Below, in pieces: positions 16,078 through 63,313 of a stretch of DNA of 64,000 bases. The DNA is from Candidatus Krumholzibacteriota bacterium (GTDB lineage Bacteria; Krumholzibacteriota; Krumholzibacteriia; JAJRXK01). The stretch is from NCBI GenBank assembly GCA_963727455.1, contig CAVSGG010000008.1, positions 160,001-224,000 of the forward strand, read 5' to 3'. How positions within the stretch are numbered: position 1 is the first letter of the stretch; every line of letters starts with the position of its first letter. Made by a program: the position numbers and the translations under genes. Under the pieces are notes generated by a model. That model did not search any database. It worked only from the letters and a program-made list of their open reading frames with translations, and was not told the DNA's origin.

Positions 16078-16084
16078 GGCTCTC

Positions 16085-17928: not shown

Positions 17929-18842
17929 CAGCGTCGCTTTCCCCGCCGCGCGAAGAAACGCAGGAGCGGATCGATGACCGGTTGGGTCACGTCGATCTCG
18001 ATGAGGTCACAACCGGCACGTCGCAGACCGCGTTTGATCTCCTGCTGCCGTTCTTGGGCCAGCTCCGCAAATTTCGAGCGCAGCTTCGCATCGGTCGAAT
18101 CCACCAGCAGGAGTTCTCCGGTCTCCGCATCTTCCACCTGGATGAGACCAACGGAGGGAATTTCCCGTTCGCGGGGATCCACCAGATGGATTGCGGTGAG
18201 ATCGTGGCGTCGCGCGGAAACCAGCAGGTCTTTTTCGTAGTCATTCGCCAAGAAATCGCTCATCAGAAAGCAGACGGCCTTGCGCTTTTGAACTCGGTTG
18301 AGAGTCTGAAGCGCGACGCGCAAATCGGTGCCCTTGGCCGTGGGCTCAAAGTAGAGCAGATCGCGGAGAAGCCTGAGGGCGTGGCGCCGTCCCTTGGCCG
18401 GAGGTACGTACAGCTCGACTTTGTCGCTGAAGAGAATCAGGCCGACCTTGTCCCCGTTGCTCACCGCCGAGAAGGCCAAGAGGGCCCCCATTTCTGCCAA
18501 CACCGCGCCCTTGCTGCGCCGTCCGCTACCGAAGCCTTCCGAGGCTGAAAGGTCGGCGAGAAGGAGAATGGTCAGCTCACGCTCTTCTTCGAACTGCTTC
18601 ACGAACGGTGAACCCTGACGCGCCGTCACGTTCCAATCGATGGAGCGCACGTCGTCGCCGGGTTCGTATTCCCTTACCTCCCGGAACTCCACTCCCCTTC
18701 CCTTGAAAACGGAGTGGTACTCCCCGCCAAAGAGCTCCTCGACCGTACGGCGCGTGCGGATCTCGAGACGCCGCACTTGGTCTAGTAGGTCGGCAGGAAT
18801 CCCACTGCCGTGTTGTTTCGTGTCGGGCGAATGGCGCTCCAC
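17928..18842 (-). CDS. DUF58 domain protein
   Basis: GEYHSVFKGRGVEFREVREYEPGDDVRSIDWNVTAR, FEEEREL. Confidence 0.95.
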   Translation of the reverse strand: MERHSPDTKQHGSGIPADLLDQVRRLEIRTRRTVEELFGGEYHSVFKGRGVEFREVREYEPGDDVRSIDWNVTARQGSPFVKQFEEERELTILLLADLSASEGFGSGRRSKGAVLAEMGALLAFSAVSNGDKVGLILFSDKVELYVPPAKGRRHALRLLRDLLYFEPTAKGTDLRVALQTLNRVQKRKAVCFLMSDFLANDYEKDLLVSARRHDLTAIHLVDPREREIPSVGLIQVEDAETGELLLVDSTDAKLRSKFAELAQERQQEIKRGLRRAGCDLIEIDVTQPVIDPLLRFFARRGKRR

Positions 18843-18860
18843 CTTGGGGTCCTGTCGCGA

Positions 18861-19847
18861 CTAGGGTACTTCGATGTGATCGAACAGCGAGCGAACGATG
18901 TCCTCACTGGTGAGATCCTCTGCCTCTGCTTCGTAGCTCACCGAAATGCGGTGTCTCAGCACCGAGGGGCCCACCGTTTTCACGTCTTCGGGGGTGACGA
19001 AGCCCCGGCCGCGCAAAAAGGCGTGCGCTTTCGCGGCTCGCGCGAGGTAGATCGAAGCGCGTGGGCTAGCACCGTAGGAAATGAGCGCGGTGAGGGAGAG
19101 ATTGTATTCCTTGGGATCGCGGCTCGCTCTCACGATGTCCAGGATGTATTCCTTGATCTTGTCGTCCACATAGATCTCATGAACCAGCTCTCGGGCTTTC
19201 AGAAGCTGGTCGCGCTGCAATACGGGCTGAATTTGTGGAGGATCGGCGCCCACCATGAGATCCATGATGCGCCGTTCCTCGTCGCGCTTGGGATAGTCCA
19301 CGAGAATCTTGAGCATGAAGCGATCGACCTGAGCTTCGGGAAGGGGATAGGTTCCCTCTTGCTCGATCGGGTTTTGGGTGGCGAGAACGAGGAACGGCTC
19401 TTCCAACTTGTAGGTTGTCTCGCCAAGCGTGACCTGAAGCTCCTGCATCGACTCCAGCAGTGCCGATTGCACTTTTGCCGGAGCGCGATTGATCTCGTCC
19501 GCCAGAATGATGTGCGAGAAAATGGGTCCCTTCTTGACCGTGAATTCGCCGCGTTTCTGGTCGAAAATCAGCGTTCCCAAGAGGTCCGCGGGCAAAAGAT
19601 CGGGAGTGAATTGAATCCGCTGGAAATCGGTGCCCAGCGAGGCAGCCAGCGATCGAACGGCCAGCGTCTTCGCCAAGCCCGGGACCCCCTCGAGCAGGAT
19701 GTGCCCTCCGGTGAGCAAGCCGAGCAACAATCCTTCGATCATCGTCCTCTGCCCGACGACCGCCCGACCCACCTGGTCCATGACCTCCTGCACGAAAACG
19801 CCTTCGGATTCGACCCTTGATTGGATCTCCTTTACCTGATTATCCAC
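18861..19847 (-). CDS. moxR: MoxR family AAA+ ATPase (start at GTG, VDNQVK)
   Basis: EGVPGLAKT, RIQFTPDLLPAD, ADEINRAPAKVQSALLE, ATQNPIEQEGTYPLPEAQVDRF. Confidence 0.96.
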   Translation of the reverse strand: MDNQVKEIQSRVESEGVFVQEVMDQVGRAVVGQRTMIEGLLLGLLTGGHILLEGVPGLAKTLAVRSLAASLGTDFQRIQFTPDLLPADLLGTLIFDQKRGEFTVKKGPIFSHIILADEINRAPAKVQSALLESMQELQVTLGETTYKLEEPFLVLATQNPIEQEGTYPLPEAQVDRFMLKILVDYPKRDEERRIMDLMVGADPPQIQPVLQRDQLLKARELVHEIYVDDKIKEYILDIVRASRDPKEYNLSLTALISYGASPRASIYLARAAKAHAFLRGRGFVTPEDVKTVGPSVLRHRISVSYEAEAEDLTSEDIVRSLFDHIEVP

Positions 19848-20052
19848 CTTGCAAGCGCCTCCACTGGCTGTGAGAGAAAAACGACGAGGGACCGAAGCTA
19901 TACGCCTCTTCGATCGATGAGGTTCCGATGGCCGGGGGGACAAATTGGGACCTGACGATCCGAATCGTCTCTGGAACTACCGCCGCCCAGGATGGTACTC
20001 TAAACTTCGAATTGCGCGTCGGCAACGTCTGCCGGCCAAGAGGAGCTCTCGC

Positions 20053-31896: not shown

Positions 31897-33156
31897 TCAG
31901 CTCGAAAGGAGTCCGGCCAGGTACACCGCCAAGTGGACGACCTCGCGTCGATCCCGCCTCTCCCGCAGTCCGGACTCGAGAAAAAGCTCGCAACCAGGGT
32001 TGGCGGTGAGGATGAGTTCCGCCCCCGTCTCCTGAAGAGAATCCAGCTTTTGCTCGCGGACCCTCTCTGCCATTTCCGGCTGCAGGAGGCTGAAGGCTCC
32101 GGCGCTCCCGCAGCAGCTCTGCGCATCGAGAGCCTGGAGGACCGTGAGCTCGGGCACGCATTGGAGGACCCGGAGAGGCTCGTCCACGATGCCTTGGGCA
32201 TGGGTGTGATGACAGGGGGGATGGTAAGCGATTCGCCGTGAATCGGCGCGGAAACGCAGCAAATCGCGGTTTGCATCGAGCCAAACCACCAGGTCGACGG
32301 TGGCGTTTGCGACCTTCCTCGCCTTCTCCGCGTAGGCCGGCTCGTCGGCGAAGATACGTCCGTACTGGCGCATGTGAGCCGAGCAGCCCGCGCTCGGCAC
32401 TACGATCGTCTCTTGCTCACAGAGAGCGTCGATGAGACTTCGAGCCAAGGCCTTGCCCCGCTCCACCGAACCCGCGTGATGGCTCAGAGCGCCACAACAA
32501 GTTTGTCCGCGGGGAAGGCAGGCCTCGAAGCCTGCAGCCTTGACCAGAGCCGCCGTGGACGGCAGAACCTCCGGGCCGAAGACCTGCTGGGCACAGCCGG
32601 CCAAGAGAGCAACCTCACCCCGCTCCGGCAGCTCCACTCGCGGCGGACGGGAGGGCGCGCGGGCTGGAAGACTGGCCAGAAGCTTTCCCAGTGGAGGAAC
32701 TGCTCTCCCCAAAAGCGGCACTTTACGGAGGAGACGAGCGCAGGTGGCGGCAGGGCCGAGAACGGCTGGTTTGCTCATCACACGATCGACCAGCTGAATC
32801 GAGAGTCGAGCGTGTGCGGTGGGGCTCGGTCCCAGAGTCTCCCGCGTATTCTCCAGCAGCTCACCGTAGAGAACACCGGAGGGACAGACCGTTTCGCAGT
32901 TGCGGCATCCGAGACAACGATCCAATCCCTCTCGAGCCGGCTCGCTTTCCTCAAACGGGCTTTCGCCGTGAGCTCTGGAATAGACCTCATTCGCAGCACT
33001 CAGTTCTGCCATGACCATGAGGCGTCCGCGTGGGGAGTCAAGCTCGTCACCGCTGACGAGGTAGGTCGGGCAGGACCCCAAGCACAGTCCGCAGTGAATG
33101 CAGCTGCGAAGAAGCTCGTCGAGTCTCAGAGTATCGTTGGCCAGCGGCTGACTCAC
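31897..33156 (-). CDS. glcF: Glycolate oxidase iron-sulfur subunit GlcF-like
   Basis: CIHCGLCLGSCP, CLGCRNCETVCPSGV, CCG domains (TCCGA, CCGSAG, TANPGC). Confidence 0.88.
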   Translation of the reverse strand: MSQPLANDTLRLDELLRSCIHCGLCLGSCPTYLVSGDELDSPRGRLMVMAELSAANEVYSRAHGESPFEESEPAREGLDRCLGCRNCETVCPSGVLYGELLENTRETLGPSPTAHARLSIQLVDRVMSKPAVLGPAATCARLLRKVPLLGRAVPPLGKLLASLPARAPSRPPRVELPERGEVALLAGCAQQVFGPEVLPSTAALVKAAGFEACLPRGQTCCGALSHHAGSVERGKALARSLIDALCEQETIVVPSAGCSAHMRQYGRIFADEPAYAEKARKVANATVDLVVWLDANRDLLRFRADSRRIAYHPPCHHTHAQGIVDEPLRVLQCVPELTVLQALDAQSCCGSAGAFSLLQPEMAERVREQKLDSLQETGAELILTANPGCELFLESGLRERRDRREVVHLAVYLAGLLSS

Positions 33157-34364
33157 TTGCCACCCCCCAGCTCGACCGGCGCTTGCGGCAAGAGGCTCTC
33201 GGGATCGAAGGCATCCTTCAGCCGCTTTTCGATCCCCGCCCGCGCGGGCGGAGTTTTGGCCGGACCCACGATTCGCTTCTTGCCGAGCGAATGCAATACG
33301 GCGCCACCCACTACACTCTCGCGCGCGAGTTCGGTCACCGCTCCCAGCAAACGGAAGTCGTCTCCGGTCAAAAAGAGCTCGGCCCGTCCGCTGGCGAAGT
33401 CGAGAACGAGCGCGACGTTGAGTCCTCGCTGGCGCCAGCGAGCCGCAAAGTCCGGCCAGCCGTTTTCGATCAAACCCAAGGGTGAGAGAACCGCGCCCCG
33501 CCACTGCTCATCGTTTTGGAACGAAGCCATGCACGCATCGAGCTCCACTTCGAACGCAGATTCTCCGACGCTCGCGCTCCAACCGCGGACGCTCTCCGCG
33601 CCTCCTTCGGCGGCCAAAACGAGCGCACCGTTTGCGGGAAGTCCGCTGGGGTGTCCCACGCCCACGTCGATCCAGAGTTGCACTACCGGTTCGAGAACGG
33701 CGCGCGGAAGTCGCAACTCCGTGAGTTTTCGCTTCGCCGCTTCGAAATCGGCGACAAGGCCGAAAGTGGCGCTGCATTCGGGGAGGGGAGAAAGTTTGAC
33801 GGTCAGATCGGTGATCAAGCCGAAAGCACCGCGAGCGCCGAAATGCAAACGAACTAGGTCGTATCCCGCGACATTTTTCACCACGCGTCCGCCACCTTTG
33901 AGCACGCGCCCGGTCCCGTCCACCGCGCTGAGGCCCAAGCTCGATTCTCTCAGACCCTGGTTGGGGCCGCTGCGCCAGCCGCGACTGCCTGAGCCAAACA
34001 GTGCGCCCAGACTCGTTTCCTCGGGCTTGTTGGCAGTCGCCGGAAAACGCATCGACTCCTCTGCCAAACGAACTTGAAGAGATGCAAGGGAGCTTCCCGC
34101 CGCCACGCGAGCCACGAAATCCTCGCGGTACAAATCGATGAGGCCGCTGAAACGTTCGGTGGAGAGCCCCACCCAACCCATCTCCGCCGCCCCAAAACCG
34201 ACTGGTTGCCAGGGGACCTTCTCCTCATAGAGCATACGCGCCGCGAGACGAAATCCTTCCAGTCCACTGGGGCTGATTCTGGAACTGGTCAGCTCGACCG
34301 CTTCTTCACCGAGCGCGGCCTGCAATTGCAGCGCGAACTTCTCCCGCAGCACCCGAACGTTCAC
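33153..34364 (-). CDS. glcE: Glycolate oxidase FAD-binding subunit GlcE-like
   Basis: GGRVVKNVAGYDL, LKDAFDP; between glcD and glcF. Confidence 0.85.
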   Translation of the reverse strand: MNVRVLREKFALQLQAALGEEAVELTSSRISPSGLEGFRLAARMLYEEKVPWQPVGFGAAEMGWVGLSTERFSGLIDLYREDFVARVAAGSSLASLQVRLAEESMRFPATANKPEETSLGALFGSGSRGWRSGPNQGLRESSLGLSAVDGTGRVLKGGGRVVKNVAGYDLVRLHFGARGAFGLITDLTVKLSPLPECSATFGLVADFEAAKRKLTELRLPRAVLEPVVQLWIDVGVGHPSGLPANGALVLAAEGGAESVRGWSASVGESAFEVELDACMASFQNDEQWRGAVLSPLGLIENGWPDFAARWRQRGLNVALVLDFASGRAELFLTGDDFRLLGAVTELARESVVGGAVLHSLGKKRIVGPAKTPPARAGIEKRLKDAFDPESLLPQAPVELGGGK

Positions 34365-43292: not shown

Positions 43293-44333
43293 TCAGGAGA
43301 CCTTGCTGCCCATGTCGTGGTAGCGCCGCTTCATGTCTTCGAGGGTGAGCGCCGGGACTTTGTCCGCGTTTCCCGCCTGTCCAAAGGCGATCATGCGTGC
43401 CTTGACGACCTCTTTCATGGCGGCCCGCGCCGGCTTCAGGTAGTCGCGCGGGTCGAACTTGCCGCCGTCTTCGGCGAAGACCTTGCGGATGGCACCGGTG
43501 ATGGCCAGACGGTTGTCGGTGTCGACGTTGATCTTGCGCACCCCGTGGCGAATCCCCTCTTGAATTTCCTCGACCGGTACTCCGTAGGTCTCGCGAATCT
43601 GACCGCCGTACTGATTGATGATGTCGACCAGTTCCTTGGGCACCGAGGAGCTGCCGTGCATCACCATGTGGGTGTTGGGCAGGCGCCGATGGATTTCGGC
43701 GATGATGTCCATCTTGAGGACTTCCCCGGTGGGCTTCTTGGTGAATTTGTAGGCGCCGTGGCTGGTGCCGATGGCCACCGCGAGGGCGTCACAACCGGTC
43801 TGCGCCACGAATTCCTCGGCCTGCGCCGGATCGGTCAGGTGGGCCAGGGCTTCCTCCCCGCTCAGTCCGGCTCCATGACCGTCCTCGATCCCACCCAGAC
43901 AGCCCAACTCCGCCTCCACCGTGACGCCCTTGGCGTGCGCGGCGTCCACGACCTTTTGCGTGACCTCGACGTTGTACTCGTAGCTCGAGGGTGTCTTGCC
44001 GTCCTCCTGCAGGGAGCCATCCATCATCACCGAGGTAAATCCCATCTCGATGGCGGAGAAGCAGGTCTGGGGCGAATTGCCGTGGTCCTGGTGCATGGCG
44101 ATGGGGATCTTGGGGTTGAGCTCGGAGGCCGCGAGCATCAAATGGCGCAGGTAGTTGTCATTGGAGTACGCCCGCGCCCCGCGGCTGGCCTGCACGATCA
44201 CCGGAGAATTGGTTTCCCGCGCCGCCTCCATGATGGCCTGAATCTGTTCCATGTTGTTCACGTTGAACGCGCCCACTCCGTAGTCGTTCTCGGCCGCGTG
44301 ATCGAGCAGTACGCGCATGGGTACCAGTGCCAT
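43293..44333 (-). CDS. fba: Fructose-bisphosphate aldolase class II
   Basis: [43 protein letters not shown]. Confidence 0.97.
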
Positions 44334-44489
44334 CGTTCATCCTCCTGTTTCCGCGAAAAAGTCCGCCTTCTCCGCTCGATTCCCTTCGTCCCGCTCAAGG
44401 AGCGGGCGTCGATGCATGTGCGCCTTGTGATTCCGTTCGTCGCTGAAAAGATGACGCCTTCTCATCGGCTCGCCAGTTTCGTTTCGCTT

Positions 44490-45719
44490 TCAGGCGGGCC
44501 TGGTCTCTTTCAAGCAGCGCAGAAGCTCGTCGATGTCCGCTTCGGTGTGGGCCGCGTTGATTTGCACGCGAATCGTCTCGTCCCCGCGCGGCACCACAGG
44601 AAAGGTGAGTCCCACCACGAGGATGCCCCTCGCAAAGAGCTGGCTCACCCAGCGTCGCGTCTTCTCGGTGTCACGCACCAAGAGCGGGACTACCGGATGG
44701 GGCCCCGGAATGGACTCCAACCCCAAGAGCGCCACCCCGCGCCGGAACTGAGCCACCCGCTCGTGCAGGTGCTTCAGGCGCTTTTGACCCTCGGGCGAGG
44801 CGGCCAGTTCGACCGCGGCCAGCGCGGCCGCGCAGTCGGCCACTCCGAGCGGGTTCGTGTAGATGTAGGTGTCGGCCTTCTGACGTACCGCTTCGATGAG
44901 CTGGGCGCTCCCCGCGATGAAACCGCCGTTCACCCCGAAGGCCTTGCCGAAGGTCCCCACCACCACGTCCGCCTTTGCCTGGGTGAATTCCTCGGTGCCG
45001 CGAGCCGTATCCCCGTAGGCTCCGATCCCGTGCGAATCGTCCACGATGATGAGGATTCCCTCCTCGAAGCGCCCCTCGTGCGCAGCCACGATCTCACGGA
45101 TCTTCGCCAAGGGCGCGAAGTCGCCGCGCATACTGAAGATTCCGTCGCAGATCACCAGGACGCGCTTCATCCCCGCAGGCACCGCCTCCAGGCACTTTCT
45201 GAGTTCGGCCATGTCGTTATGGGCATAGATGGCCCGCTGTTGCGAAGGCACTCCGGCGATGCGCATTCCGCGGATGATGCAGTTGTGGTTGAGAGCGTCG
45301 CCAATCCAGTAGCTCTGTTTCCCGGCCAGGGTGAGGGCCAGGCCCAGATTGCTGGTATAGGCGGAATTGAAGATCTTGGCGGCTGGCTTGCCCAGGTACC
45401 GGGCAATCGCAGTCTCGAGTTGGCGGTGGTGGCGGAAGGTGCCGTCGATGAAGCGCACCGCGCCCGGCCCGACACCGAATTCGTGGGTGGCGCGGTCAGC
45501 GGCCTCCACCAGCTTGGGGTGATCGGAAAGGGAGAGGTAGGAATTGGAGTTCATGCGCAGGAATTCCTGCTCGCTTTCCTGCAGCCTATAGCGCGGTCCC
45601 CGCTTTCCCTTGGCGGGGAGATACCCCACGATCACTCTCTCGGGCGCCTTGGCCCGACCCTCATCCTTCAGGCCCTGCAGCTCCTTGGCCAATGCCTCGT
45701 CGATCTTCTGCATGCTCAT
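44490..45719 (-). CDS. kbl: Alpha-oxoamine synthase family PLP enzyme (glycine C-acetyltransferase / BioF-like)
   Basis: SNSYL, GPGAVRFIDGT, DALNHNCII, DGIFSMRG, DDSHG, GTFGKAFG, RVQINA. Confidence 0.8.
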   Translation of the reverse strand: MSMQKIDEALAKELQGLKDEGRAKAPERVIVGYLPAKGKRGPRYRLQESEQEFLRMNSNSYLSLSDHPKLVEAADRATHEFGVGPGAVRFIDGTFRHHRQLETAIARYLGKPAAKIFNSAYTSNLGLALTLAGKQSYWIGDALNHNCIIRGMRIAGVPSQQRAIYAHNDMAELRKCLEAVPAGMKRVLVICDGIFSMRGDFAPLAKIREIVAAHEGRFEEGILIIVDDSHGIGAYGDTARGTEEFTQAKADVVVGTFGKAFGVNGGFIAGSAQLIEAVRQKADTYIYTNPLGVADCAAALAAVELAASPEGQKRLKHLHERVAQFRRGVALLGLESIPGPHPVVPLLVRDTEKTRRWVSQLFARGILVVGLTFPVVPRGDETIRVQINAAHTEADIDELLRCLKETRPA

Positions 45720-45969
45720 AACGGGTCCCTCCTCCAGCGTTCCGCGCCCTTCTCGCTCGGCGCGGGCAGTGTAGTGCAGGGCTCCTCGCGCTCGCAAGCA
45801 GACAGCGACCAGGGGGCGGGCACAAAAAAGTTGGGCTCGAGGCAAAAAAGTCAAGCGGAGGATGCTGCGCGACTAGGGTATTTGACCTATTATGAGGTCT
45901 ATCAACACGCTGTCGAGCCCTACGCCGGCTCGACCCCATCGATTGGTTCCAAGTCGCGGAGTTCGCGCC

Positions 45970-46110
45970 ATGAAGACGAGACACGACGCTGGCCAGAAGC
46001 GTCGCCCCTACAGTCCACCCGTAGTCAAGCGGCAGAGTAATCTCAAGTTGATCACGCTTTTCACCCAGATGGGTCCGGATTCGAAGCGGACGGCGAACGG
46101 TTCCCACTAG
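45970..46110 (+). CDS. Putative RiPP precursor with lasso-type leader (46 aa)
   Basis: MKTRHDAGQKRRPYSPPVVKRQSNLKLITLFTQMGPDSKRTANGSH; GGAG SD; lies in an otherwise empty gap; spacing matches YxxPxLxxxGxxxxxTx. Confidence 0.65.
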   Translation: MKTRHDAGQKRRPYSPPVVKRQSNLKLITLFTQMGPDSKRTANGSH

Positions 46111-51259: not shown

Positions 51260-52690
<1,431 letters not shown>

Positions 52691-52846
52691 CTACCACGCG
52701 GAGAGGGAAAAGTAGCACAAGTCCACGGTTTGCCCACCCGAAGCCCCAATTCCTTCGCCCAAACCCCCGCCGTGGGGCGCCGATTCATGGATTCAAATGT
52801 TTGGGTTTGATCGTCAAATGGTCTTACGGTGCGCGTGCCTCGGCGA

Positions 52847-52875
52847 TTGACAGCGCCAAGCGCCAACCGTAACCT
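52847..52875 (+). promoter_or_regulatory. Near-consensus sigma70 promoter of the PqqD gene
   Basis: TTGACA-17 nt-TAACCT. Confidence 0.65.
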
Positions 52876-52911
52876 CTTCTCCCGACCGGTCCTATGCCCC
52901 TTGGAGGAACC

Positions 52912-53205
52912 GTGGTCTTCAACCCCGACTTTCGCCCGAGCCGAAACGATCAGGTCCGTTGGCAGGCTGTCGACGAAGAGGGCATCCTCGTGAATCTCGA
53001 GACGGGCTTTTACTTCAGTTTGAATCCAGTGGCCCTGTTCATCTGGGACCTCTGCGATGGCGAAGCTTCCAACGCGCAGATTCTGGAGAAGATCGTGGAG
53101 AACTTCGACGTGGTCGAGGAGACGGCCCGTCAAGATTTCGAGGCATTTCTGGAGGCCCTGGAGAACGAGAACCTCCTCGTCGTGTCTCCTCCCAGGGCGA
53201 GCTAG
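52912..53205 (+). CDS. PqqD family protein (stand-alone RiPP recognition element)
   Basis: VDEEGILVNLETGFYFSLNPVALFIWDLCDG...FDVVEETARQDFEAFLEALENENLL; GGAGG SD before GTG. Confidence 0.9.
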   Translation: MVFNPDFRPSRNDQVRWQAVDEEGILVNLETGFYFSLNPVALFIWDLCDGEASNAQILEKIVENFDVVEETARQDFEAFLEALENENLLVVSPPRAS

Positions 53206-54308
53206 CCGCGAAAGTCCTCTCTTCGCGGATGCACAAACCCCCTCCCCCCAAGCGTGGATTGACGAAGCACGGGTCGCGCCAAGAGCGTGAGTACCTGTGG
53301 ACCCAGGATTTCGACCGCAGGAATACCTCCGTCGCATAGTTGAGATACCAGATCGGGACCACGCCACTTCTTCGGCGCTGCCATAGCGTACGCGCGACCA
53401 GACCGCGCCAAATCCGTGATCGAAGCGTCCCGGACCCGCCAGACTCTGGGTAGGCCCGCGGGGCCCTGGAGACCAAGGAGCAAACTGGCAGTCCGCAGCA
53501 CCCGGCTCAGCTCCTATTGCACTCCCATTTCCCTCGCGCGCGCGGAGAGGGTATGCCCATCGACCCTTCTCCGGCGCGCGAAGGCCAGCGTCTCCACACG
53601 GCCGGATCATGCCGGCGTAGTTCTCGTCATGGTCGATGCGGAGGCACGAATGGATGAGTGAATCGTAATCGTCCAGGCGCCTCATCTTCTCGTAATCGGG
53701 GCGAGAGAGGAAGGGAACGCGTCCACATCCCGTCCAGATCGAGATGAAAGGGATGCGGGGGACGAACCATGATCCCAGTGCAAGTTGAGCCTGAGTGCGG
53801 GACAGCTGGGTAAATAACGTGGCTCGGCGCGGTGATGGTGCAGGTAATATTCCTGCGGAAGCTTGCCGAGGCGCAGAAAGCCACAAGCATCGACCAAGCG
53901 TTCAGCCTCTTCCATCGCGGCGCGGCCGAGCAGGAGATCCATTTCGCCCGGACCGCGCAGCCAGCCCCGAGGCTCGTAGAGCAAGATGCGCAGGGCGGTC
54001 CCGTTCAGAGCGATCGCGGGAATGGAAGCTTCGGCGAATTTCTCAGCCAGCCGCCGTGTCGAGTCCCCGGCGACCAGATCGAAGGCAGCCGTGAGTTCGT
54101 GTGCCTCCTGCATCCTCAACTTGAGCAGTGGGGGAAGCTCGTCGTAGACGCCTTCGTCCTTTAGTACTCGGTAGAGCAAGGGGAGAATGCCGTTGTCGTT
54201 GGCCAGCTCCAAACCGGAGGCGTCGGGAGCCAGAAGGGGACAGCTCGTCTCGTCTTTGGCCATGAGACGAGCGATCCAGTGCAGCAGCTGATGAGGGGCG
54301 CGGTTCAC
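53202..54308 (-). CDS. Uncharacterised nucleotidyltransferase family protein (NTP_transf_5-like), frameshifted in the 3' half
   Basis: GILPLLY, IALNGTAL...Y...LRGPGEMDLLL, LNLHW (family pattern LKG..L...Y...R...DIDLL, ELHW); continuation in other frames to 53202. Confidence 0.7.
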
Positions 54309-55359: not shown

Positions 55360-55388
55360 TTGACCGCTGATCGGCTTCACCGTATCCT
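55360..55388 (+). promoter_or_regulatory. Putative sigma70 promoter of the sugar operon
   Basis: TTGACC-17 nt-TATCCT. Confidence 0.55.
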
Positions 55389-55459
55389 TGCTTCTCCTTC
55401 ATGCCAAGACTCAGCTTGCCATGTCGCCCTCAAGGACGAACTACAGGAGAACGCGGATA

Positions 55460-56434
55460 ATGCGCGCATTGATCACCGGGTACACGGGTTTCGTGGGTAG
55501 CCATCTCGCGGAGGCCCTTCTCGAGCGCGGCACCGAAGTGTACGGGCTCTATCGCTGGCGGAGCCGGCTCGAGAACGTCAAACACCTCCAGGGCCGCGTT
55601 CACCTGGTCGAGGGAGACATCGCCGACGCGGCGGCGATGCGCCACGCCGTGGCGCTCTCGCGTCCGGACGAAATCTACCATCTGGCGGCACAGTCTTTCG
55701 TTCCGACCTCGTGGACGAGCCCGGGCGCCACTCTGGATACCAACATCCAGGGTGAGCTCAATCTTTTCGAAGCAGTGCGGCAGCTCGAAGATCTCCCCAC
55801 GAATTCAAATCGCCGGTAGCAGCGAGGAGTACGGACTCGTTCGTGAGGATGAACTGCCGATCACCGAGGAGCAACCGCTCCGCCCCCTCTCCCCCTACGC
55901 GGTGAGCAAGGTGGCCCAAGATCTCTTGGCACATCAGTACTTTCGCTCGTACGGACTCGATGTGGTTCGCACGCGCGGATTCAATCACACCGGACCCCGC
56001 CGCGGTCAGGTCTTCGTGTGTTCCAATTTTGCCTGGCAGATCGTCCGAATCGAGCGCGGCAGGCGGAGCCCATCATCCGCGTGGGCAACCTCGAAGCCCG
56101 CAGGGATTTCACGGACGTAAGGGACATCGTGAGGGGCTATCAGCTCGCCTTGCAAAAGGGCGAGGCCGGCGAGGTCTACAATCTGTGTTCCGGCCGCGAT
56201 TGGAGCATTCAGCAGATCCTGGATCACCTGCTCTCGCGCAGCGAGGTCGAGGTGAAAGTCGAATTCGATCCTGCGCGCGCTCGACCCAGCGACGTGCCCG
56301 TCCTTCAGGGCAGTGCCGCGAAATTTCATGCTGTCTCCGGATGGAAACCCGAAATTCCCTTCGAGAGAACCCTCGATCAGATTCTGGACCACTGGCGGCA
56401 AGATCTTGCGTCCGCAAGAGGCTCCGACTCTTGA
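55460..56434 (+). CDS. GDP-mannose 4,6-dehydratase / Rmd-like extended SDR, two frameshifts
   Basis: ITGYTGFVGSHL, HLAAQSFV, GSSEEYG, SPYAVSK, FNHTGPRR, GNLEARRDFTDVRD. Confidence 0.85.
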
Positions 56435-57403
56435 AGCGCGCTTGGGTCACGGGGAGTCATGGCTTCGTTGCGCCATGGTTGATTCGTGAGCTCACACGGC
56501 GAAGAATCGAGGTCTTCGGGATCGACCGTCCCGGCCGTCCGCCCCGCACAAGAAGGCGAATACGAGGGACTCGAGCTGGACCTTCTCGACCCAGGCCGTA
56601 GATCGCGCCCTGCGGAAACATCGGCCCGACGCAATTTTCCATCTCGCCGCGCAGAGTAGCGCCGCGCGTTCCTTCCAGCATCCCGCAGAGACCCTGCACG
56701 TGAACGTGCAGACCACGGTGAGTTGCTCGAGGGAATCAGGCGTTCGGCAAGAGACGAAATGGTGTTGCTCTCGGTGGGTTCCTGCGAAGAGTACGGGCCG
56801 ATTCATGACGAGCAGGAGATTCCAGTGCGCGAGGATCACGCGCTGCGTCCAGCATCGCCCTACGCCGTGAGCAAAGTGGCGCAGACGCTGCTGTGCCTAC
56901 AGTACCACGAGGCCTATGCTCTGCCCGTGGTCTGCACGCGATCCTTCACTCACAGTGGCCCCGGCCAGAGCGACCGCTTCGTGTTCTCGAGCTTTGCCCG
57001 CCAGATCGCCGAGCAAGAGAAGGAAGGCCAAAGGGGACCAGGTGAGCTCCTCGTGGGAAACCTGGCGGCAGTGCGCGACTTGAGCGACGTGCGAGACGTT
57101 GCGCGCGCCTATGTGGAATTGGCCGAGAAGGGTAAACGCGGCGAGGTGTACAACGTGTGCTCCGGGAGGGGTATCGCGATCGAAGATGGGCTCTCGATTC
57201 TCCGCTCGCTCTCCAAGCGCGAAGTCGAGGTCAAGGTCGATCCGAAACGGCTCCGGCCGCTCGACGTTCCCGTCCTAGTGGGAGACGTGAGCAAGTTGCG
57301 CTCTCTCTTGGGTTGGTCCCCCTCCACGCCGGTCGAGCAAACTCTCGGTGATCTGCTCCAAGATTGGCGCATGCAGCTTCAGAGAGGAGAGCCCAATGGC
57401 TAG
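56431..57403 (+). CDS. Second Gmd/Rmd-like extended SDR, frameshift near 56550
   Basis: VTGSHGFV, HLAAQSS, GSCEEYG, SPYAVSK, GNLAAVRDLSDVRD. Confidence 0.83.
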
Positions 57404-58703
57404 GATTTGCATGGTGGGGACCGGCTACGTCGGGCTGGTGTCGGGCGCCTGCTTCGCGGACTTCGGTCACGAAGTTCACTGCGTGGACATCGACGAAAAG
57501 CGCATCGAGGCCCTGAAGCGTCACGAAATTCCCTTCTTCGAGCCGGGTCTCGATCAGCTCGTGCTCCGTAACCATCAGTCAGGCAGACTCCACTTCAGCA
57601 CGAAGCTCGAGGCGGGTATCCGCGCCTGTGAGGTCATCATGATCGCGGTCCAGACTCCGAGCGGAGAGCGCGGTGAAGCCGACTTGCGTCACGTTTTGAG
57701 CGTGGCACGGGAGGTGGGACGGCATCTCTTGCCGAAGGAACGGAAGCTGATCGTGACCAAGAGTACGGTTCCCGTGGGCACCTCACGCCGAGTCAAGGCG
57801 GAGATCGCGGAGAGCGCGCCTTCGGGCTCGGTATTCGAAGTCGCTTCGAATCCCGAGTTCCTGCGCGAAGGCAGCGCGATTGAGGATTTCATGCGACCGG
57901 ACCGCGTGGTTCTCGGGGTTGAGTCCGAGGAGGCGGAGCGAGTGCTGCGCGAACTCTATCGGCCGCTCTTTCTGCTCGAGACGCCGATGGTCGCTTGCGA
58001 CATCTCCACCAGCGAGCTGATCAAGTACGCGAGCAATGCGTTTCTGGCTTTGAAGATCTCCTACATCAACGAGCTTGCCGATCTCTGCGAGCGGACCGGG
58101 GCCAACATCTCTGCCGTGGCTAAAGCCATGGGACTGGATGGCCGCATCGGCCCCAAATTCCTCCATCCCGGGCTGGGATTCGGAGGATCCTGCCTTCCCA
58201 AGGACACCAGAGCGATCGTGAACATGGCAAAGGAACACGGAGAGGAATTATCGATCATCTCGGCCGCGATCCGGGTGAACATGATGCGCGTCCCCCGAGC
58301 GGTACAAAAGCTCGAGGGGCTTCTGGGAAAGATCGAAGGCAAGCGCGTGGCCCTTTTGGGACTTGCGTTCAAACCCAACACCGATGACGTGCGGGAGGCC
58401 CCCGCGATCGAGCTGGTAAAAGTCCTGCGCGAGAGAGGCGCTAGTGTGGTGGGATTCGATCCCCAGGCCGCCGAGAGCTTTCGCCGAGTCGTGAGGGACA
58501 TGGAGACGGCGCAGGACGCTTACGCCTGCGCTGAAGCTGCGGACGCCCTCGTTCTGGTCACCGAGTGGAATTCCTTCCGTACCCTCGATCTACTGCGTTT
58601 GAAGTCCTCAATGCGGACCGCCGTATTCCTGGATTGCCGCAACGTCTACGAGCGTGCGCGCATGGAGAGTTTGGGATTCGCCTACGATTGCTTTGGACGG
58701 TGA
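57396..58703 (+). CDS. ugd: UDP-glucose/GDP-mannose 6-dehydrogenase
   Basis: GTGYVGL, KSTVPVG, NPEFLREG, KYASNAFLA, GFGGSCLPKD, FKPNTDD. Confidence 0.94.
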   Translation: MARICMVGTGYVGLVSGACFADFGHEVHCVDIDEKRIEALKRHEIPFFEPGLDQLVLRNHQSGRLHFSTKLEAGIRACEVIMIAVQTPSGERGEADLRHVLSVAREVGRHLLPKERKLIVTKSTVPVGTSRRVKAEIAESAPSGSVFEVASNPEFLREGSAIEDFMRPDRVVLGVESEEAERVLRELYRPLFLLETPMVACDISTSELIKYASNAFLALKISYINELADLCERTGANISAVAKAMGLDGRIGPKFLHPGLGFGGSCLPKDTRAIVNMAKEHGEELSIISAAIRVNMMRVPRAVQKLEGLLGKIEGKRVALLGLAFKPNTDDVREAPAIELVKVLRERGASVVGFDPQAAESFRRVVRDMETAQDAYACAEAADALVLVTEWNSFRTLDLLRLKSSMRTAVFLDCRNVYERARMESLGFAYDCFGR

Positions 58704-58713
58704 TTCCGTGGAG

Positions 58714-59976
58714 ATGAAGGCACGGAGCGGCTTCGCTGCGGGCATGGCCTGGAACCTGGCCTCCGCCGCTCTTCCCCTCGTCGCGTCGTTCTTGGTTTCG
58801 GTGCTCCTCTTCCCCTACCTCGGACGAGAAGCGACCGGGCAATACATCCTGGTCATGTCGGCCGCCACCGTGCTCCTCATCGTGGCCAAGTTCGGGGTGC
58901 AGTCAGCGGCCAGCCGACTGATCACCGAGAACCAAGAAGACCCGGGAGTTTGGATCAGGGCCGGTATCGCGGTGCGGAGTCTTTTCACGCTCCCAACCGC
59001 TTTGCTCGCACTAGTGATCTCCCCTTTTCTGGCGCGAGCGATCGACGGGCCTTCGCTCATACCTCCCTTCTGGTTGGTGGCTCCCGTTCTCTTGGCGGCC
59101 TCGGCCTATGAGCTCGCTAGCGAATCCCTGGTCGGGCTGAGGCGCTTCTCCGCGATCTTCTTGGTTCGCCTGTTGTTTCTCGTGCTGCGGGTGGCCGCGG
59201 TGCTCGTCGTGCGCTCGTCTGCCCTGGGTGTCGTGGCCTTTCTCGTCGGACACGTACTGTCCCAGCTTCTGACCTCCGCGGCAGCCTGGGGCTGGATCCT
59301 GCGGCACTTTCCCTCCCGTGCAACTCAGGAGGAGAAAACGCGGGCGCGCAAACGTGTATTGGCGGTGAGCGCCCCTTTGGCGCTGTCTTCGGCGTCCTTT
59401 CTCATCTACGCCCAAACCGACAAGCTCATGGTGGGTTGGTTGCGTGACGCGGCGACCGCAGGAGATTTTGGGGTGGCGCGCACGGTGCTCGACGCGGCTC
59501 TGTTTCCGACCTTTGCGCTCGCCTGGACGCTCAGACCAGCCCTGGTGAGCGCGTTCCAGTCGCGAGACGTCCAGGAGACACGCGCGCGTCTCTTGGAGGG
59601 ATTGCGCTGGTCGGTGGCCTATGCACTGCTGGGTGGACTCCTGCTGTATTGGTTGGGACCGGCCGTTCTGGTGCGGCTGTTTACGCGCGACTTTTCCGCC
59701 TCCGGACCCCTCCTGCGCATCATGGTGCCCATATTGGTGCTGCGCGGGATTGGCACTGTCATTTTCCCCAGCCTGCTCGCCGCTGACCGTCAAACTACCT
59801 ATGCCCGACTCATGGTCCTCACGGCTCTCTTGAACGTGGCGGCCAACTTCCTTCTCATTCCCCCCTTGGGGGCAGAAGGCGCGATCCTGGCCACCATCGC
59901 CAGCTTGCTCCCTTTGACCGTGGGTGGATTGTGGATCGTGGCGAAGCTCTTCTTGAGAAGTGAGCAAAGCCGCTGA
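58714..59976 (+). CDS. Wzx-type polysaccharide flippase (MOP superfamily)
   Basis: About 12 TM segments, TDKLMVG, LNVAANFLLIPPLGAEGAILAT. Confidence 0.87.
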   Translation: MKARSGFAAGMAWNLASAALPLVASFLVSVLLFPYLGREATGQYILVMSAATVLLIVAKFGVQSAASRLITENQEDPGVWIRAGIAVRSLFTLPTALLALVISPFLARAIDGPSLIPPFWLVAPVLLAASAYELASESLVGLRRFSAIFLVRLLFLVLRVAAVLVVRSSALGVVAFLVGHVLSQLLTSAAAWGWILRHFPSRATQEEKTRARKRVLAVSAPLALSSASFLIYAQTDKLMVGWLRDAATAGDFGVARTVLDAALFPTFALAWTLRPALVSAFQSRDVQETRARLLEGLRWSVAYALLGGLLLYWLGPAVLVRLFTRDFSASGPLLRIMVPILVLRGIGTVIFPSLLAADRQTTYARLMVLTALLNVAANFLLIPPLGAEGAILATIASLLPLTVGGLWIVAKLFLRSEQSR

Positions 59977-60143
59977 GAGTTCACGCTCTTCGGCCGCGGA
60001 TGCCCGAAAGACTCCGAACTCCAAGGTGAGAGTCCGCAGCATCGATAATGCTTGACCTGTTCGCCGGGGAACGGTAAACGAAGGGCAGCGCCGCGATTCG
60101 CCGCACTTGCGCCTTGCCTCCTCGACTTCGGAGAAGCGCGAAC

Positions 60144-61238
60144 ATGTCCATCCTGTCGACAATTTTCGGCTTTAGTCTCGCGTGCCTGGTTTGTCTCGCT
60201 CTCACTCCTCTGGTCGCTCGCCTGGCAATCTCGGATGGACTTCGCAGCTCGACACCGCGCCGTTCCGGCTTGGCACCCGAGGTGCGGCCCCGGATCGGTG
60301 GGCTCGCGATCTATGGGGCGGTAGTACTCACCCTCCTCCTCTCGGCCTTCGCGTTCCCCGCGCTACAGAACCCCGCTGCAACGCGCTTCTTGAGCGGAGT
60401 CATCCTCTCCGGTGGACTGGTCGTCATCTTAGGACTGATCGACGATTTGCAGGAGAGCCTTCCCTGGAAGAAGTTGATCACTCAGGCGCTGGCCGTGCTG
60501 GTGCTGCAGTTCTACATGGACGTTCTGGGTTTCGCGATGGCCATGGGTCCCTGGTTGCACTTGGTGGTCTCACTGGTGCTTTTGCTCTGGATGCTGGGCC
60601 TGAGCAATGCCATGAACCTCATCGACGGTCTGGATGGACTGGCAGCTTCCATCGCGGCGCTGATCGGCTTGGGCATGTCCGTCGTGGCGCTCGCCCTTCA
60701 TCTGCCTTTGGCCGCATTGACCGCGGCCGTAATCTCAGGGGCGAGCTTCGCCTTTTTGCGCAAGAATGCACCGCCCGCGTCCATCATCATGGGCGATACT
60801 GGCTCGATGTTCACCGGATTCGCGCTTGCCGCGGTAGGAGTCGCGATCTTCGGAGCCCGTCCTTCCGCGCGGACTCTCCTGGGCCTACTTCTCATCTCCT
60901 GGGTTCCTGCATTGGACACCTTCTACGCGGTTCTGCGGCGCTGGGCGCGCAGGAGCAGCATCTTCCATGGCGATCTCGGACATCTGCACCACCGCCTGCT
61001 CGATGCCGGCTTTTCGCAGAAAAGCGCAGGGCTCGGTCTGAGCGCACTCACACTCTTGGGAGCAGTCACTGGAGCGGCGGTAATCCTGGGCCGCCACGCT
61101 CTTCTCTTTACAACTGCCCTCCTGCTTGCCACCTTCTTGCTGGTGTGGATCGTACTGCCGCACCTTTTCTCGCGCTTGGATGAGTCGAGCGCGAAGAGCC
61201 GGCGTGTCGACGCCGTTTCGCATGACAAAGCCGCCTGA
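60144..61238 (+). CDS. WecA/TagO-like polyprenyl-phosphate sugar-1-phosphate transferase (MraY family)
   Basis: PRIGGLAI, GLIDD, NAMNLIDGLDGL, MGDTGS, DLGHLHHRL. Confidence 0.92.
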   Translation: MSILSTIFGFSLACLVCLALTPLVARLAISDGLRSSTPRRSGLAPEVRPRIGGLAIYGAVVLTLLLSAFAFPALQNPAATRFLSGVILSGGLVVILGLIDDLQESLPWKKLITQALAVLVLQFYMDVLGFAMAMGPWLHLVVSLVLLLWMLGLSNAMNLIDGLDGLAASIAALIGLGMSVVALALHLPLAALTAAVISGASFAFLRKNAPPASIIMGDTGSMFTGFALAAVGVAIFGARPSARTLLGLLLISWVPALDTFYAVLRRWARRSSIFHGDLGHLHHRLLDAGFSQKSAGLGLSALTLLGAVTGAAVILGRHALLFTTALLLATFLLVWIVLPHLFSRLDESSAKSRRVDAVSHDKAA

Positions 61239-61241
61239 TCC

Positions 61242-62324
61242 ATGGTTCAGCCACTCACCATTGGGACGAGAGAGGATGGTCTCGCGAGAGCTCAGGCTGA
61301 GCTTTTCATGGAGCAGTTGCGGGAGTATGAACCCCCCTATCCAGTTCATCTGGAACTAGTCCGTCCTTCACAGGACCGGCCAATCGCGGTCCACGTCGAT
61401 CACATCGCGGAGAACCGCCGCAACATCCAGCTTCTTCATCACATTCTGCGCGAAGGTGATTGCGACGTCGTCATCCATCGTGGCTTCGATTTACGGGACA
61501 AGTTGCCCCCCGATCTCGCCATTGCCGCGATTCCAAAGCGGTGTTCACCCTACGATGCGCTTCTCTCACCTTCGGGGCTCACTCTCGACGAGCTGGAACC
61601 AGGAACTCCCGTAGGGGTAGTCCAACTCCGTGCGCGGGTACAGATGCTCCAGTACCGCCACGATCTCGACTGGACTCTCATGTCGGGAGACGTCGCCACC
61701 TGGCTGGCTGATCTACTGGATCAGAAAATCGAAGCGCTCGTCATGCCCAACGCGGCCATCGAGCAGTTGGGACTGCAGGAGCGTGTGAGTGAAATATTTC
61801 CCGCCGACCTGGTGATTCCCGCCCCGTGCTCGGGTATCCTCGTCTGCATTACCCGCCGCGATGACGAACTGGCACGGGGGCGCCTCTCTTGCATCCACCA
61901 CAAGGAGACCGCGCGTGAGTACGCGGCAGAACGCTCCATGATGGACGCACTGGACTGCGAGTGGGATTCTCCGGTGGCCGCACTCGCGCAGTGCAAGGGA
62001 CGCAGGCTTCTACTTCTGGGTATGGTCGCCGATACCGACGGCTACCGACTGATCAGGGAAGGAGTGGAAGGCAAGTCCTCCGAGTCGATCGAGGTGGGCG
62101 AGGCTGTCGCGGAGCTTTTATCACGCGGTCTCAGGCAGTCCGCGGAGGAATGGGACAGCGAAGAGTTCTCCGAGTCGCAAGTGGAGACGGATGAAGTCGC
62201 GGACGAACTAACTGCGCTCTTACTGGCGACCAACTTGAACGACCTCGAGGACGACTACCCCGAGAGCGACGAAGAGAAAGAGAAAGATCCAGACGATTTT
62301 GAAGAGGAGGAGTTTCTCGAATGA
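61242..62324 (+). CDS. Porphobilinogen deaminase (HemC)-like protein, catalytically degenerate, acidic C-terminal tail
   Basis: HemC scaffold IGTR..LARAQA, LAIAAIPKR..PYDAL, LDELEPG..VG, IPAPCSG, AERSMM, SPVAALA; key motifs altered. Confidence 0.8.
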   Translation: MVQPLTIGTREDGLARAQAELFMEQLREYEPPYPVHLELVRPSQDRPIAVHVDHIAENRRNIQLLHHILREGDCDVVIHRGFDLRDKLPPDLAIAAIPKRCSPYDALLSPSGLTLDELEPGTPVGVVQLRARVQMLQYRHDLDWTLMSGDVATWLADLLDQKIEALVMPNAAIEQLGLQERVSEIFPADLVIPAPCSGILVCITRRDDELARGRLSCIHHKETAREYAAERSMMDALDCEWDSPVAALAQCKGRRLLLLGMVADTDGYRLIREGVEGKSSESIEVGEAVAELLSRGLRQSAEEWDSEEFSESQVETDEVADELTALLLATNLNDLEDDYPESDEEKEKDPDDFEEEEFLE

Positions 62325-63313
62325 CTAAGCCCCTGCCCACCCTCTTGCTAACCGCCCTTCCAGCCTCGGGCAAGTCCGAGGTCCGGCGCTACCTCGAACA
62401 TCTCAGTCCCGAGGAGGTCACGCGCGATTTCCATCTGGGCGAGACGGTCCAGCTGGATGACTACCCCTATGTCCATGCCATGCGTCGCATCTCGGAAGAG
62501 TTGGTATCGCGGGGACGCGACGGGATCTTCTTCACCTCACAGCTCGAGCCCTTCAAGGAACCGCTGGACTGGGGAACTCTGATGCACCTGCTCAACGAGG
62601 ACTATCGCGACCTCCACGAGCCGCCGAAGATCGAAGTCGATTCCGCGGCGAACTGGCTCTTCGACCGTCTCGATCGCTGTCGCTCCGCCGTGGGCGCACC
62701 GGCCGAACTGGGGGCTCTGGAGCCCGGCTTGCGCAAAGAGCTGAGCGAGGCACTCGAAGACGAAGCACGCTCCCTTCTGAACGACAAGCTGGCCGGTATC
62801 CCCGAGGATCTTAGGGGCAAGACGATCGTCATCGAGTTTGCCCGTGGAGGCGCCGATGGCTCCTCGATGCCTCTTCCCGCTCCCTTCGGCTATGCTTTTG
62901 GATTCGCCCAGTTAAGCGACGAAATTCTGAAGGACGCCAGCGTCCTCTACATTTGGGTTTCGCCCGAGGAGAGCAGACGCAAGAACGAGGAGCGCGCCAA
63001 GCCGGGTCGCAGCGGTGATGCGTCGATTCTCAACCACGGCGTGCCCATCAAAGTCATGCTAGGCGATTACGGCTGTGACGACATCGAGTGGTTGCTTGAG
63101 CAGAGCGACCGCCGCGACACCGTCCGCATCGAGACCCGCGGCAGGGTCTTCCATCTTCCTCTGGCCCGTTTCGACAACCGCGAGGACCTTACAACTTTCG
63201 TCCGAAAGGACCCCCAGCAGTGGACGAAGGAGGAAGTGAGTGCGCTTCACTCGGGTCTGAAGGACGCATTCGAACATCTTCTACGGGCGCGCCGGGAGTC
63301 GCCCGAGGCCTAG
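62321..63313 (+). CDS. Hypothetical P-loop (nucleoside monophosphate kinase-like) protein
   Basis: N-terminal LLLTALPASGKSE Walker A-like motif; IVIEFARG; LYIWVSPEESRRKN; ATGA overlap with the HemC-like gene. Confidence 0.7.
   Translation: MTKPLPTLLLTALPASGKSEVRRYLEHLSPEEVTRDFHLGETVQLDDYPYVHAMRRISEELVSRGRDGIFFTSQLEPFKEPLDWGTLMHLLNEDYRDLHEPPKIEVDSAANWLFDRLDRCRSAVGAPAELGALEPGLRKELSEALEDEARSLLNDKLAGIPEDLRGKTIVIEFARGGADGSSMPLPAPFGYAFGFAQLSDEILKDASVLYIWVSPEESRRKNEERAKPGRSGDASILNHGVPIKVMLGDYGCDDIEWLLEQSDRRDTVRIETRGRVFHLPLARFDNREDLTTFVRKDPQQWTKEEVSALHSGLKDAFEHLLRARRESPEA

Follow-up and report, generated by a model that had tools for sequence, protein, structure and literature searches.

A conserved HemC homologue lacking the cofactor cysteine in a glycan operon of Candidatus Krumholzibacteriota

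We analyse a gene encoding a homologue of HemC, the hydroxymethylbilane synthase (HMBS, or porphobilinogen deaminase), in a 64,000-nucleotide stretch of a Candidatus Krumholzibacteriota genome (contig CAVSGG010000008.1, positions 160,001 to 224,000, forward strand), to which we refer in its entirety as the window. The gene lies in a glycan operon, and its product, hereafter the HemC-like protein, has kept the HMBS fold and lost the cysteine that we take to carry the cofactor. Comparison with orthologues across the phylum, with the canonical hemC of the same genome and with the haem genes of related genomes makes it very probable that the HemC-like protein is not an HMBS and that it belongs functionally to the glycan operon. 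We prefer to see it there as an accessory or regulatory component that is not obligatory, and weigh this reading below against a new enzymatic function and against a structural relic.

Sequence, fold and selection

The HemC-like gene is an unbroken open reading frame (ORF) of 360 amino acids, at positions 61242-62324 of the forward strand. Its product matches PF01379 (115.1 bits over residues 5-210, Pfam cut-off 22.1) and PF03900 (34.8 bits, Pfam cut-off 26), and it scores 176.3 bits against the NCBIfam hemC equivalog TIGR00212, narrowly above the cut-off of 164. The closest solved relatives are the bacterial HMBS chains 4mlq and 1pda (E ~1e-28), and identity with HMBS is about 28-31%. An AlphaFold2 model built with an input of 32 relatives has a mean predicted local distance difference test (pLDDT) score of 82.2, falling below 50 at residues 47-52 and in nearly all of residues 307-360. 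The model has the three-domain HMBS fold, and every top Protein Data Bank match found with Foldseek is an HMBS (template modelling score, TM, 0.67-0.90; E ~1e-29). A database entry for the same protein (P0004, 338 aa) begins at Met23. Since homology with HMBS begins at residue 4-5 and the orthologues have the N-terminus MVQPLTIG, the 360-residue start is the better one. By eye the N-terminus carries no signal peptide, and we read the protein as presumably cytoplasmic. Its features are as follows.

61242..62141 (+): folded part, residues 1-300 (Pfam, TIGR00212, solved-chain alignment, model, Foldseek)
62142..62324 (+): acidic disordered tail, residues 301-360, and stop codon (composition, pLDDT, ratio of nonsynonymous to synonymous substitution rates)
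Key codons (+), all checked: F82, 61485-61487; D83, 61488-61490; R130, 61629-61631; W154, 61701-61703; W241, 61962-61964

Residues were mapped onto the E. coli enzyme through a gap-free alignment to chain 1pda. In E. coli HMBS we take C242 to be the attachment site of the dipyrromethane cofactor, D84 to be the catalytic aspartate, and R11, K83, R131, R132, R149 and R155 to be the binders of acetate and propionate groups. Position C242 is occupied in the HemC-like protein by W241, with a cysteine (Cys239) two residues earlier, and four of the basic residues are lost (K83 to F82, R132 to A131, R149 to S148 and R155 to W154), leaving R11 (as R10) and R131 (as R130) alone of the six carboxylate-binding residues; all six are invariant or nearly invariant among 42 canonical HemCs. 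The catalytic aspartate persists as D83, S13 is replaced by D12, and, besides Asp84 and Arg131, Gln19, Gly199 and Glu231 are also retained relative to HMBS. An initial annotation made from the sequence had described an intact 360-residue frame, five altered motifs (TREDGLA, HRGFD, GVVQLRA, SGDVATWL and LDCEWDSP), the replacement of Cys242 by tryptophan with a cysteine two residues upstream, the loss of K83, R132, R149 and R155, the retention of D84, and a very acidic tail of about 60 residues, and each of these descriptions is reproduced by our analysis.

The same substitutions recur throughout a distinct clade. A protein search (48 matches among 7999 candidates scored) returned 44 relatives at 43-100% identity, followed by a drop to four ordinary HemCs at 31-33%. 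Alignment A2 comprises the window protein and 31 of these 44 relatives, thirteen near-duplicates or fragments having been omitted by eye (P0004, 6, 8, 22, 32, 35, 37, 39, 40, 42, 43, 45 and 47). Residues F82, D83, R130, D150, W154, P169 and W241 are invariant in all 32 members, and the fixation of F82, W154 and W241 indicates that these substitutions are not due to chance. The shifted Cys239 occurs in only 9 of the 32, which argues against attachment of the cofactor through this residue, and we rejected it as an alternative attachment site on that ground.

Across the nine sampled families of the phylum, designated f1 to f9 with f1 the family of the window, we compiled 73 orthologues (34 of f1 type, 14 of f5 type, 5 of f2 type, 19 of f6/f8 type and 1 of f4 type); similarity was the sole basis for assigning 20 of the f2 and f6/f8 sequences, for each of which 1.6 kb of surrounding DNA was retrieved. 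The comparison set was the 42 canonical HemCs, which include 8 of the same class. The C242 column holds cysteine in 42 of 42 canonical proteins and in none of the 73 orthologues. Position 84 is aspartate in f1 (34/34) and f5 (14/14), glutamate in f2 (5/5) and alanine, histidine or tyrosine in f6/f8, and the aspartate is not kept in f4 either. Position 83 is phenylalanine in all 34 f1-type sequences; position 155 is, depending on the group, tryptophan (34/34 in the f1 type), alanine, arginine, or one of valine, isoleucine and leucine; and position 242 is tryptophan, glutamine, proline, or one of proline, glutamate and serine. R131 is retained in 68 of the 73, and few residues (E174, Q179 and E184) are common to all orthologue groups yet variable in canonical HemCs. 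Among 146 further top representatives from a library of 1.84 billion proteins, 133 have both the cysteine and the aspartate at the C242 and D84 columns, so that, in this top-scoring set at least, the cysteine is seldom lost; most of the 13 without the cysteine belong to these HemC-like clades by their residues. We also observed another HemC homologue without the cofactor cysteine in this library, P0055 (315 aa), which has proline there, retains K83, D84, R131, R132 and R155, carries no acidic tail and scores 223.5 bits against TIGR00212.

Purifying selection acts strongly on the HemC-like gene. In comparison with the orthologue at locus L003, which is 85% identical, the ratio of nonsynonymous to synonymous substitution rates (dN/dS) is 0.073 overall, with 0.041 in the folded part (residues 1-300) and 0.386 in the tail, and the ratios of four operon neighbours range from 0.063 to 0.125, all of these being rough because dS is about 1.5, near saturation. 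This dN/dS check had been proposed in the initial annotation, and it gives no indication of neutral decay. A decaying pseudogene or an assembly artefact might be suspected from the frame changes in the two SDR genes upstream, which would place assembly errors nearby; given the intact frame, the overall dN/dS, the 44 relatives and synteny in 7 of 7 related loci, we regard this explanation as practically negligible.

A quick maximum-likelihood tree, computed from 67 of 115 rows after thinning of the f1, f6/f8 and outside-canonical rows, places the canonical HemCs on one side of a branch with a Shimodaira-Hasegawa-like approximate likelihood ratio test (SH-aLRT) support of 82; f1 and f5 are sisters (99), and f4 groups with f6/f8 (100). 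Taken together, tree and synteny fit one old duplication followed by divergence. No fused forms were found among the proteins of 631-2000 aa searched, which is weak evidence, and two long open frames of 590 and 774 aa considered as fusions were rejected, their ORF coordinates making them alternative frames over the WecA gene.

Independence from haem synthesis

The genome of the window has a second PF01379 match, on contig C11 (257 bits), with all the canonical motifs and 296.2 bits against TIGR00212. It is flanked by a hemB-like and a protoporphyrinogen-oxidase-like ORF, both assigned from their translations, with hemB confirmed by Pfam in relatives only. The second, canonical hemC that the initial annotation had suggested looking for is therefore present: the HemC-like gene is not the cell's HemC, for which there is a canonical gene beside hemB on another contig. 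The same holds for f5, where all five genomes tested have a canonical hemC (225-238 bits) close to hemB in addition to the divergent copy.

Orthologues also occur in genomes from which the neighbouring steps of the haem pathway appear to be missing. Genomes G006 (f2, 98% complete), G019 (f6, one contig, 96%) and G036 (f4, 96%) gave no match to PF00490 (hemB), PF02602 (hemD) or PF01208 (hemE) at E up to 0.001, and the single weak PF01379 match of each (107, 118 and 57.5 bits, respectively) is the degenerate HemC-like gene in the operon. Two f8 genomes have hemB, hemD and hemE matches in the same searches. One f8 genome on a single contig (G079) has two canonical hemC genes (272 and 263 bits) and two hemB genes along with the degenerate HemC-like gene.

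These observations bear on the alternative that the HemC-like protein is a still-working HMBS, holding its cofactor through Cys239 or non-covalently. Such an enzyme would be consistent with the score above the TIGR00212 cut-off (176.3 against 164) and with the retention of Asp84 and Arg131, but the scarcity of Cys239 in the clade, the loss of K83, R132, R149 and R155, the canonical hemC beside hemB in the same genome and the orthologues in genomes without hemB, hemD and hemE make it highly improbable.

The equivalog score nevertheless has consequences for annotation. Scores of seven cysteine-less proteins against TIGR00212 (cut-off 164) were:

Window protein: 176.3 bits, passes
G019 orthologue (L045): 172.2 bits, passes
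G006 orthologue (L046): 167.0 bits, passes
P0017: 166.5 bits, passes
P0023: 162.2 bits, fails
P0056: 154.3 bits, fails
P0062: 132.5 bits, fails

Four of the seven thus pass, one of them from a single-contig genome without hemB, hemD and hemE, and one source already calls several clade members hydroxymethylbilane synthase. Because cysteine-less proteins pass the hemC equivalog, metabolic reconstructions can wrongly credit an organism with this step of the haem pathway.

The glycan operon across the phylum and in the window

Seven genes of the same direction form a row in the window, and the HemC-like gene is number six; its orthologues end a conserved operon in seven of the nine sampled families, an eighth showing a variant order. 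The conserved order is SDR-SDR-NDP-sugar dehydrogenase-(SDR-WecB)-Wzx-WecA-type transferase-HemC-like, where NDP stands for nucleoside diphosphate and the bracketed pair is present in part of the loci, and the fullest order seen is SDR-SDR-Ugd-SDR-WecB-Wzx-WecA-HemC-like. When 201 genomes of the phylum, all assigned by their labels to the same class, were searched with a profile, hits exceeding 460 bits came from f1 only, in nine of its ten genomes; the tenth, G052 (93% complete), gave none. Within f1 the arrangement SDR-SDR-Ugd-...-WecA-HemC-like is present in 7 of 7 loci (L003-L009), with Wzx in six of them. Families f2, f4, f6, f7, f8 and f9 have more degenerate, tail-less orthologues, which lie in the Ugd operon in 8 of 8 loci and stand immediately after the WecA-type gene in 7 of 8, f2 being the exception.

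Family f5 has a second type of HemC-like protein, scoring about 200-226 bits against A2. Its gene stands in the order Ugd-DegT aminotransferase-HemC-like in 8 of 8 loci, with an upstream SDR in seven of the eight and a convergent pyrD downstream, also in seven. A locus labelled as uncultured Fibrobacteraceae (L010) has the order SDR-SDR-Ugd-DegT-HemC-like with convergent pyrD and pyrK; gene, order and tree position match those of f5-type Krumholzibacteriota, and the taxonomic label may be off.

Some lineages keep the operon without the HemC-like gene. Genomes G025 and G044 (f7, genus g19) have ...Ugd-SDR-WecB-WecA-serS where G019 has ...WecA-HemC-like-serS, and gave no HemC-family match in the 201-genome search. 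In f3, G002 and G063 are 100% complete and yield no match other than one at canonical level (249 bits); the operon locus of G002 contains no HemC-like gene. Separately, Wzx is missing between WecB and WecA in the f7 loci L076, L079 and L081; since L076 has the HemC-like gene and the other two do not, the two losses are not coupled.

In the window, the other six genes of the operon are the following.

55388..56431 (+): SDR 1 (GDP-mannose 4,6-dehydratase/LegB-like), broken by frame changes (PF16363/PF01370 on ORF pieces 55752-56120 and 56018-56434; tblastn)
56431..57403 (+): SDR 2, with a frame change near 56530-56549 (Pfam on 56723-57403; tblastn)
57348..58703 (+): NDP-sugar 6-dehydrogenase, Ugd/TuaD-like (PF03721, PF00984, PF03720)
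58654..59976 (+): Wzx-type polysaccharide flippase-like membrane protein (PF01943, PF13440)
60114..61238 (+): WecA/MraY-family polyprenyl-phosphate sugar-1-phosphate transferase (PF00953, 92.7 bits; TIGR02380, 66 bits, below cut-off)
62321..63313 (+): P-loop protein of 330 aa (Walker A LPASGKS), its start overlapping the HemC-like stop (ATGA)

Both SDR genes are intact at L003 (348 and 324 aa). The 348-aa orthologue covers positions 55388-56431 by tblastn, at only 67% identity, and the second aligns with residues 1-32 in frame 1 and residues 40-324 in frame 2; the frame changes in the window are either assembly errors or real inactivation. The L003 orthologue of the dehydrogenase scores 448 bits against TIGR03026 and 492 bits against a TuaD-like model, the latter below that model's cut-off.

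The initial annotation had described the HemC-like gene as coupled to both of its neighbours, and both junctions can be read directly: the TGA stop of the WecA-type gene is followed by 3 nt and then by the HemC-like ATG, and the HemC-like stop overlaps the P-loop start. Their conservation differs. The WecA link is widely conserved, whereas the P-loop link is local to one family, where it is found in 5 of 7 loci; in all five f5 genomes the P-loop gene lies elsewhere, which makes its coupling to the HemC-like gene specific to f1. We rejected the P-loop protein as a general partner because it is absent from two of the seven f1 loci, is located elsewhere in the f5 genomes and has at least 3632 relatives, a family much larger than the HemC-like clade. 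It matched no model in Pfam or NCBIfam; the best 120 of these relatives are 60-100% identical to the window protein, relatives are named as hypothetical proteins of Eisenbacteria and Latescibacterota, and its model (pLDDT 88.5) gave only weak matches to folds like those of nucleoside and nucleoside-monophosphate kinases (TM 0.3-0.48).

As the initial annotation had noted, no haem gene besides the HemC-like one was found in the window, among 55 ORFs scanned with Pfam, a scan restricted, in the first 39.5 kb, to ORFs of at least 150 aa. Promoter and terminator scans gave results at chance level. Elsewhere in the window, positions 12364-19943 (-) hold a row of BatA/BatD-VWA-DUF58-MoxR (AAA_3) genes resembling the Bat aerotolerance operon, and three long ORFs have no Pfam match: 43317-46037 (+, 907 aa), 52672-53883 (-, 403 aa) and 32374-34074 (+, 567 aa). 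Some of these may be spurious frames, the DNA having about 61% G+C.

Candidate functions and their implications

The role that we favour for the HemC-like protein is a non-obligatory accessory or regulatory one, because loss of the gene leaves the operon intact in some lineages, because the orthologues share no catalytic residue and because acidity is their common trait. Residues 301-360 of the HemC-like protein contain 28 aspartates and glutamates and 2 lysines or arginines, are modelled as disordered and carry a net charge of -26, added to a body at -15. The median net charge of the fold lies between -12 and -22 in all orthologue groups, compared with 0 in canonical HemCs from elsewhere and -6.5 in those of the same class. 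Acidic tails occur in f1 and f5 only, with medians of 51 aa at -16 and 58 aa at -21, respectively. The strict tail motif [DE][LIVM][ASTV]G.. was found in 9 of 48 tails (shuffled mean 1.28, maximum 5) and was rejected as a general feature, being confined to those nine; the f5 segment LLEADFPDGLP was rejected as a new tail motif, since it corresponds to the last helix of canonical HemC.

In f1 and f5 the cleft between the domains is also more conserved than the rest of the protein. Of 20 cleft-equivalent positions, 14 are at least 90% conserved in the f1 type, against 71 of 280 elsewhere in the protein (Fisher p 7.5e-5), and 9 of 20 against 52 of 280 in the f5 type (p 0.009); the sequences are related, so these p-values overstate the enrichment. 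The corresponding counts in canonical HemCs are 19 of 20 and 32 of 280. The f1 cleft gains Phe82, Trp154 and Trp241, its arginines are shifted to R80, R85 and R132, and the lid at residues 51-59 is invariant and rich in histidine, aspartate and glutamate, with the conserved motif HDDHxAENR. In both f1 and f5 the cleft is probably a ligand-binding site.

We propose that the HemC-like protein is a cofactor-free cytoplasmic descendant of HMBS that would no longer make tetrapyrroles and would serve as an accessory to the pathway for an envelope-glycan precursor. Its acidic body and tail would dock on a basic partner, for which gene order points to the cytoplasmic face of the WecA-type transferase translated just before it as the most plausible candidate. 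The remodelled inter-domain cleft (Phe82, Trp154, Trp241, Asp83, Arg130, Arg132 and the HDDHxAENR lid) would bind a ligand of the pathway, and gene order and residue chemistry suggest a uridine diphosphate (UDP)-sugar or a polyprenyl-phosphate-linked intermediate. Binding would then tune the start of glycan synthesis and entail no obligatory catalytic step. As a whole, with the binding mechanism included, we place this reading slightly below an even chance. Its most specific form, in which the acidic, cofactor-free clamp is a dedicated soluble partner of the WecA-type transferase, binds a UDP-sugar or polyprenyl-phosphate-linked sugar in the old cofactor cleft and gates the first membrane step, is a tentative suggestion and on balance doubtful.

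Several observations weigh against this accessory role. The f5 gene comes after one for a DegT aminotransferase, and the 8 kb around it yielded no WecA gene, which weakens WecA as a universal partner. Orthologues in f2, f4, f6 and f8 have no tail, and no cleft enrichment is seen in f6/f8 (8/20 against 83/280) or in f2 (9/20 against 110/280). Since the cleft residues, moreover, differ wholly from one orthologue group to another, the groups are unlikely all to bind the same ligand, and perhaps only some families depend on the cleft. The invariant histidine, aspartate, glutamate and arginine residues around the f1 cleft would equally fit a new enzyme.

That possibility, a neofunctionalized enzyme whose rebuilt cleft modifies a nucleotide sugar or a lipid-linked sugar in a non-essential tailoring step, with Asp83, Arg130, H51, H54, E57, R59, R85 and D150 as candidate residues, competes seriously with the accessory reading where the f1 and f5 forms are concerned. 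In both types the cleft is the most conserved part of the protein, Asp84 and Arg131 are retained in 48 of 48 f1 and f5 sequences, and the lid and cleft floor hold clade-specific invariant histidine, aspartate, glutamate and arginine residues. Position directly after a sugar aminotransferase in f5 and loss in some lineages, which is typical of tailoring enzymes, point the same way. It must be set against this that no candidate catalytic residue is common to the orthologue groups, positions 84, 155 and 242 all varying, and that the residues conserved in all groups are mostly structural ones common to canonical HemCs too. Above a TM of 0.5 Foldseek returned nothing but HMBS, and we know of no enzyme other than HMBS with this fold family. 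Overall, we consider a new enzyme possible but rather unlikely.

A further reading is that the protein is a purely structural relic, an inert acidic scaffold or a solubility or chaperone module for the product of a neighbouring gene, with a ligand-free cleft in which the f1 phenylalanine and tryptophans fill the space of the cofactor. F82, W154 and W241 stand exactly at cofactor-contacting positions, f6/f8 and f2 show no special conservation of the cleft, acidity is the sole trait common to all groups and the gene is dispensable in some lineages. The many invariant polar residues of the f1 cleft, maintained across about 40-50% identity, and a dN/dS of the fold as low as that of the operon's enzymes argue otherwise, and make a relic improbable.

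The initial annotation had inferred a repurposed protein that is dead as an HMBS and had left its role open between pseudoenzyme, ligand sensor and enzyme for another substrate; the repurposing is supported, and the choice of role has been narrowed. On homology, loss of essential residues, selection and synteny in eight of nine families, the HemC-like protein would fit a pseudoenzyme. It shares its three-domain fold with 1pda, 4mlq, 5h6o and human HMBS, and differs from them in its missing cofactor cysteine and basic residues, its acidic fold with an added tail, its location in a glycan operon rather than with hem genes, its coexistence with a true hemC and its occurrence in organisms without the haem pathway. 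The next Foldseek matches after HMBS are the type II periplasmic-binding-protein-like ligand binders MetQ and TauA and an enzyme with the periplasmic-binding-protein fold, Thi5, which resemble domains 1 and 2 in having a two-lobe cleft; the similarity is weak (TM 0.28-0.51), and the HemC-like protein has the additional domain 3 of HMBS. Dead paralogues that act as partners or regulators include HisZ. Another is the trypanosomatid AdoMetDC 'prozyme', a catalytically dead paralogue with such a function (PMC5201418, PMC6221367). The HemC-like protein is comparable to prozyme-type proteins as an enzyme paralogue that has lost key catalytic residues and remains under purifying selection. Those proteins, however, regulate their own active paralogue, whereas the HemC-like gene is unlinked to canonical hemC and survives without it, so any partner must be a different protein.

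In the openly available full-text literature we found nothing relevant on a HemC-like or pseudoenzyme paralogue of HemC or on a soluble partner of WecA/MraY transferases, and the papers found there under the phylum's name were ecological only. To our knowledge, HemC has been regarded as having one function throughout the family. A selected, conserved branch without the cofactor cysteine would change that view and invites one to ask which other functions the HMBS clamp fold can have. If the accessory role that we propose takes the specific form of a soluble partner of the WecA-type transferase, it would represent the first non-tetrapyrrole function for the HemC family and the first soluble accessory subunit described for the WecA-type transferase family, and the HemC-like gene would mark a hitherto undescribed accessory component of the WecA-type initiation module in Candidatus Krumholzibacteriota.

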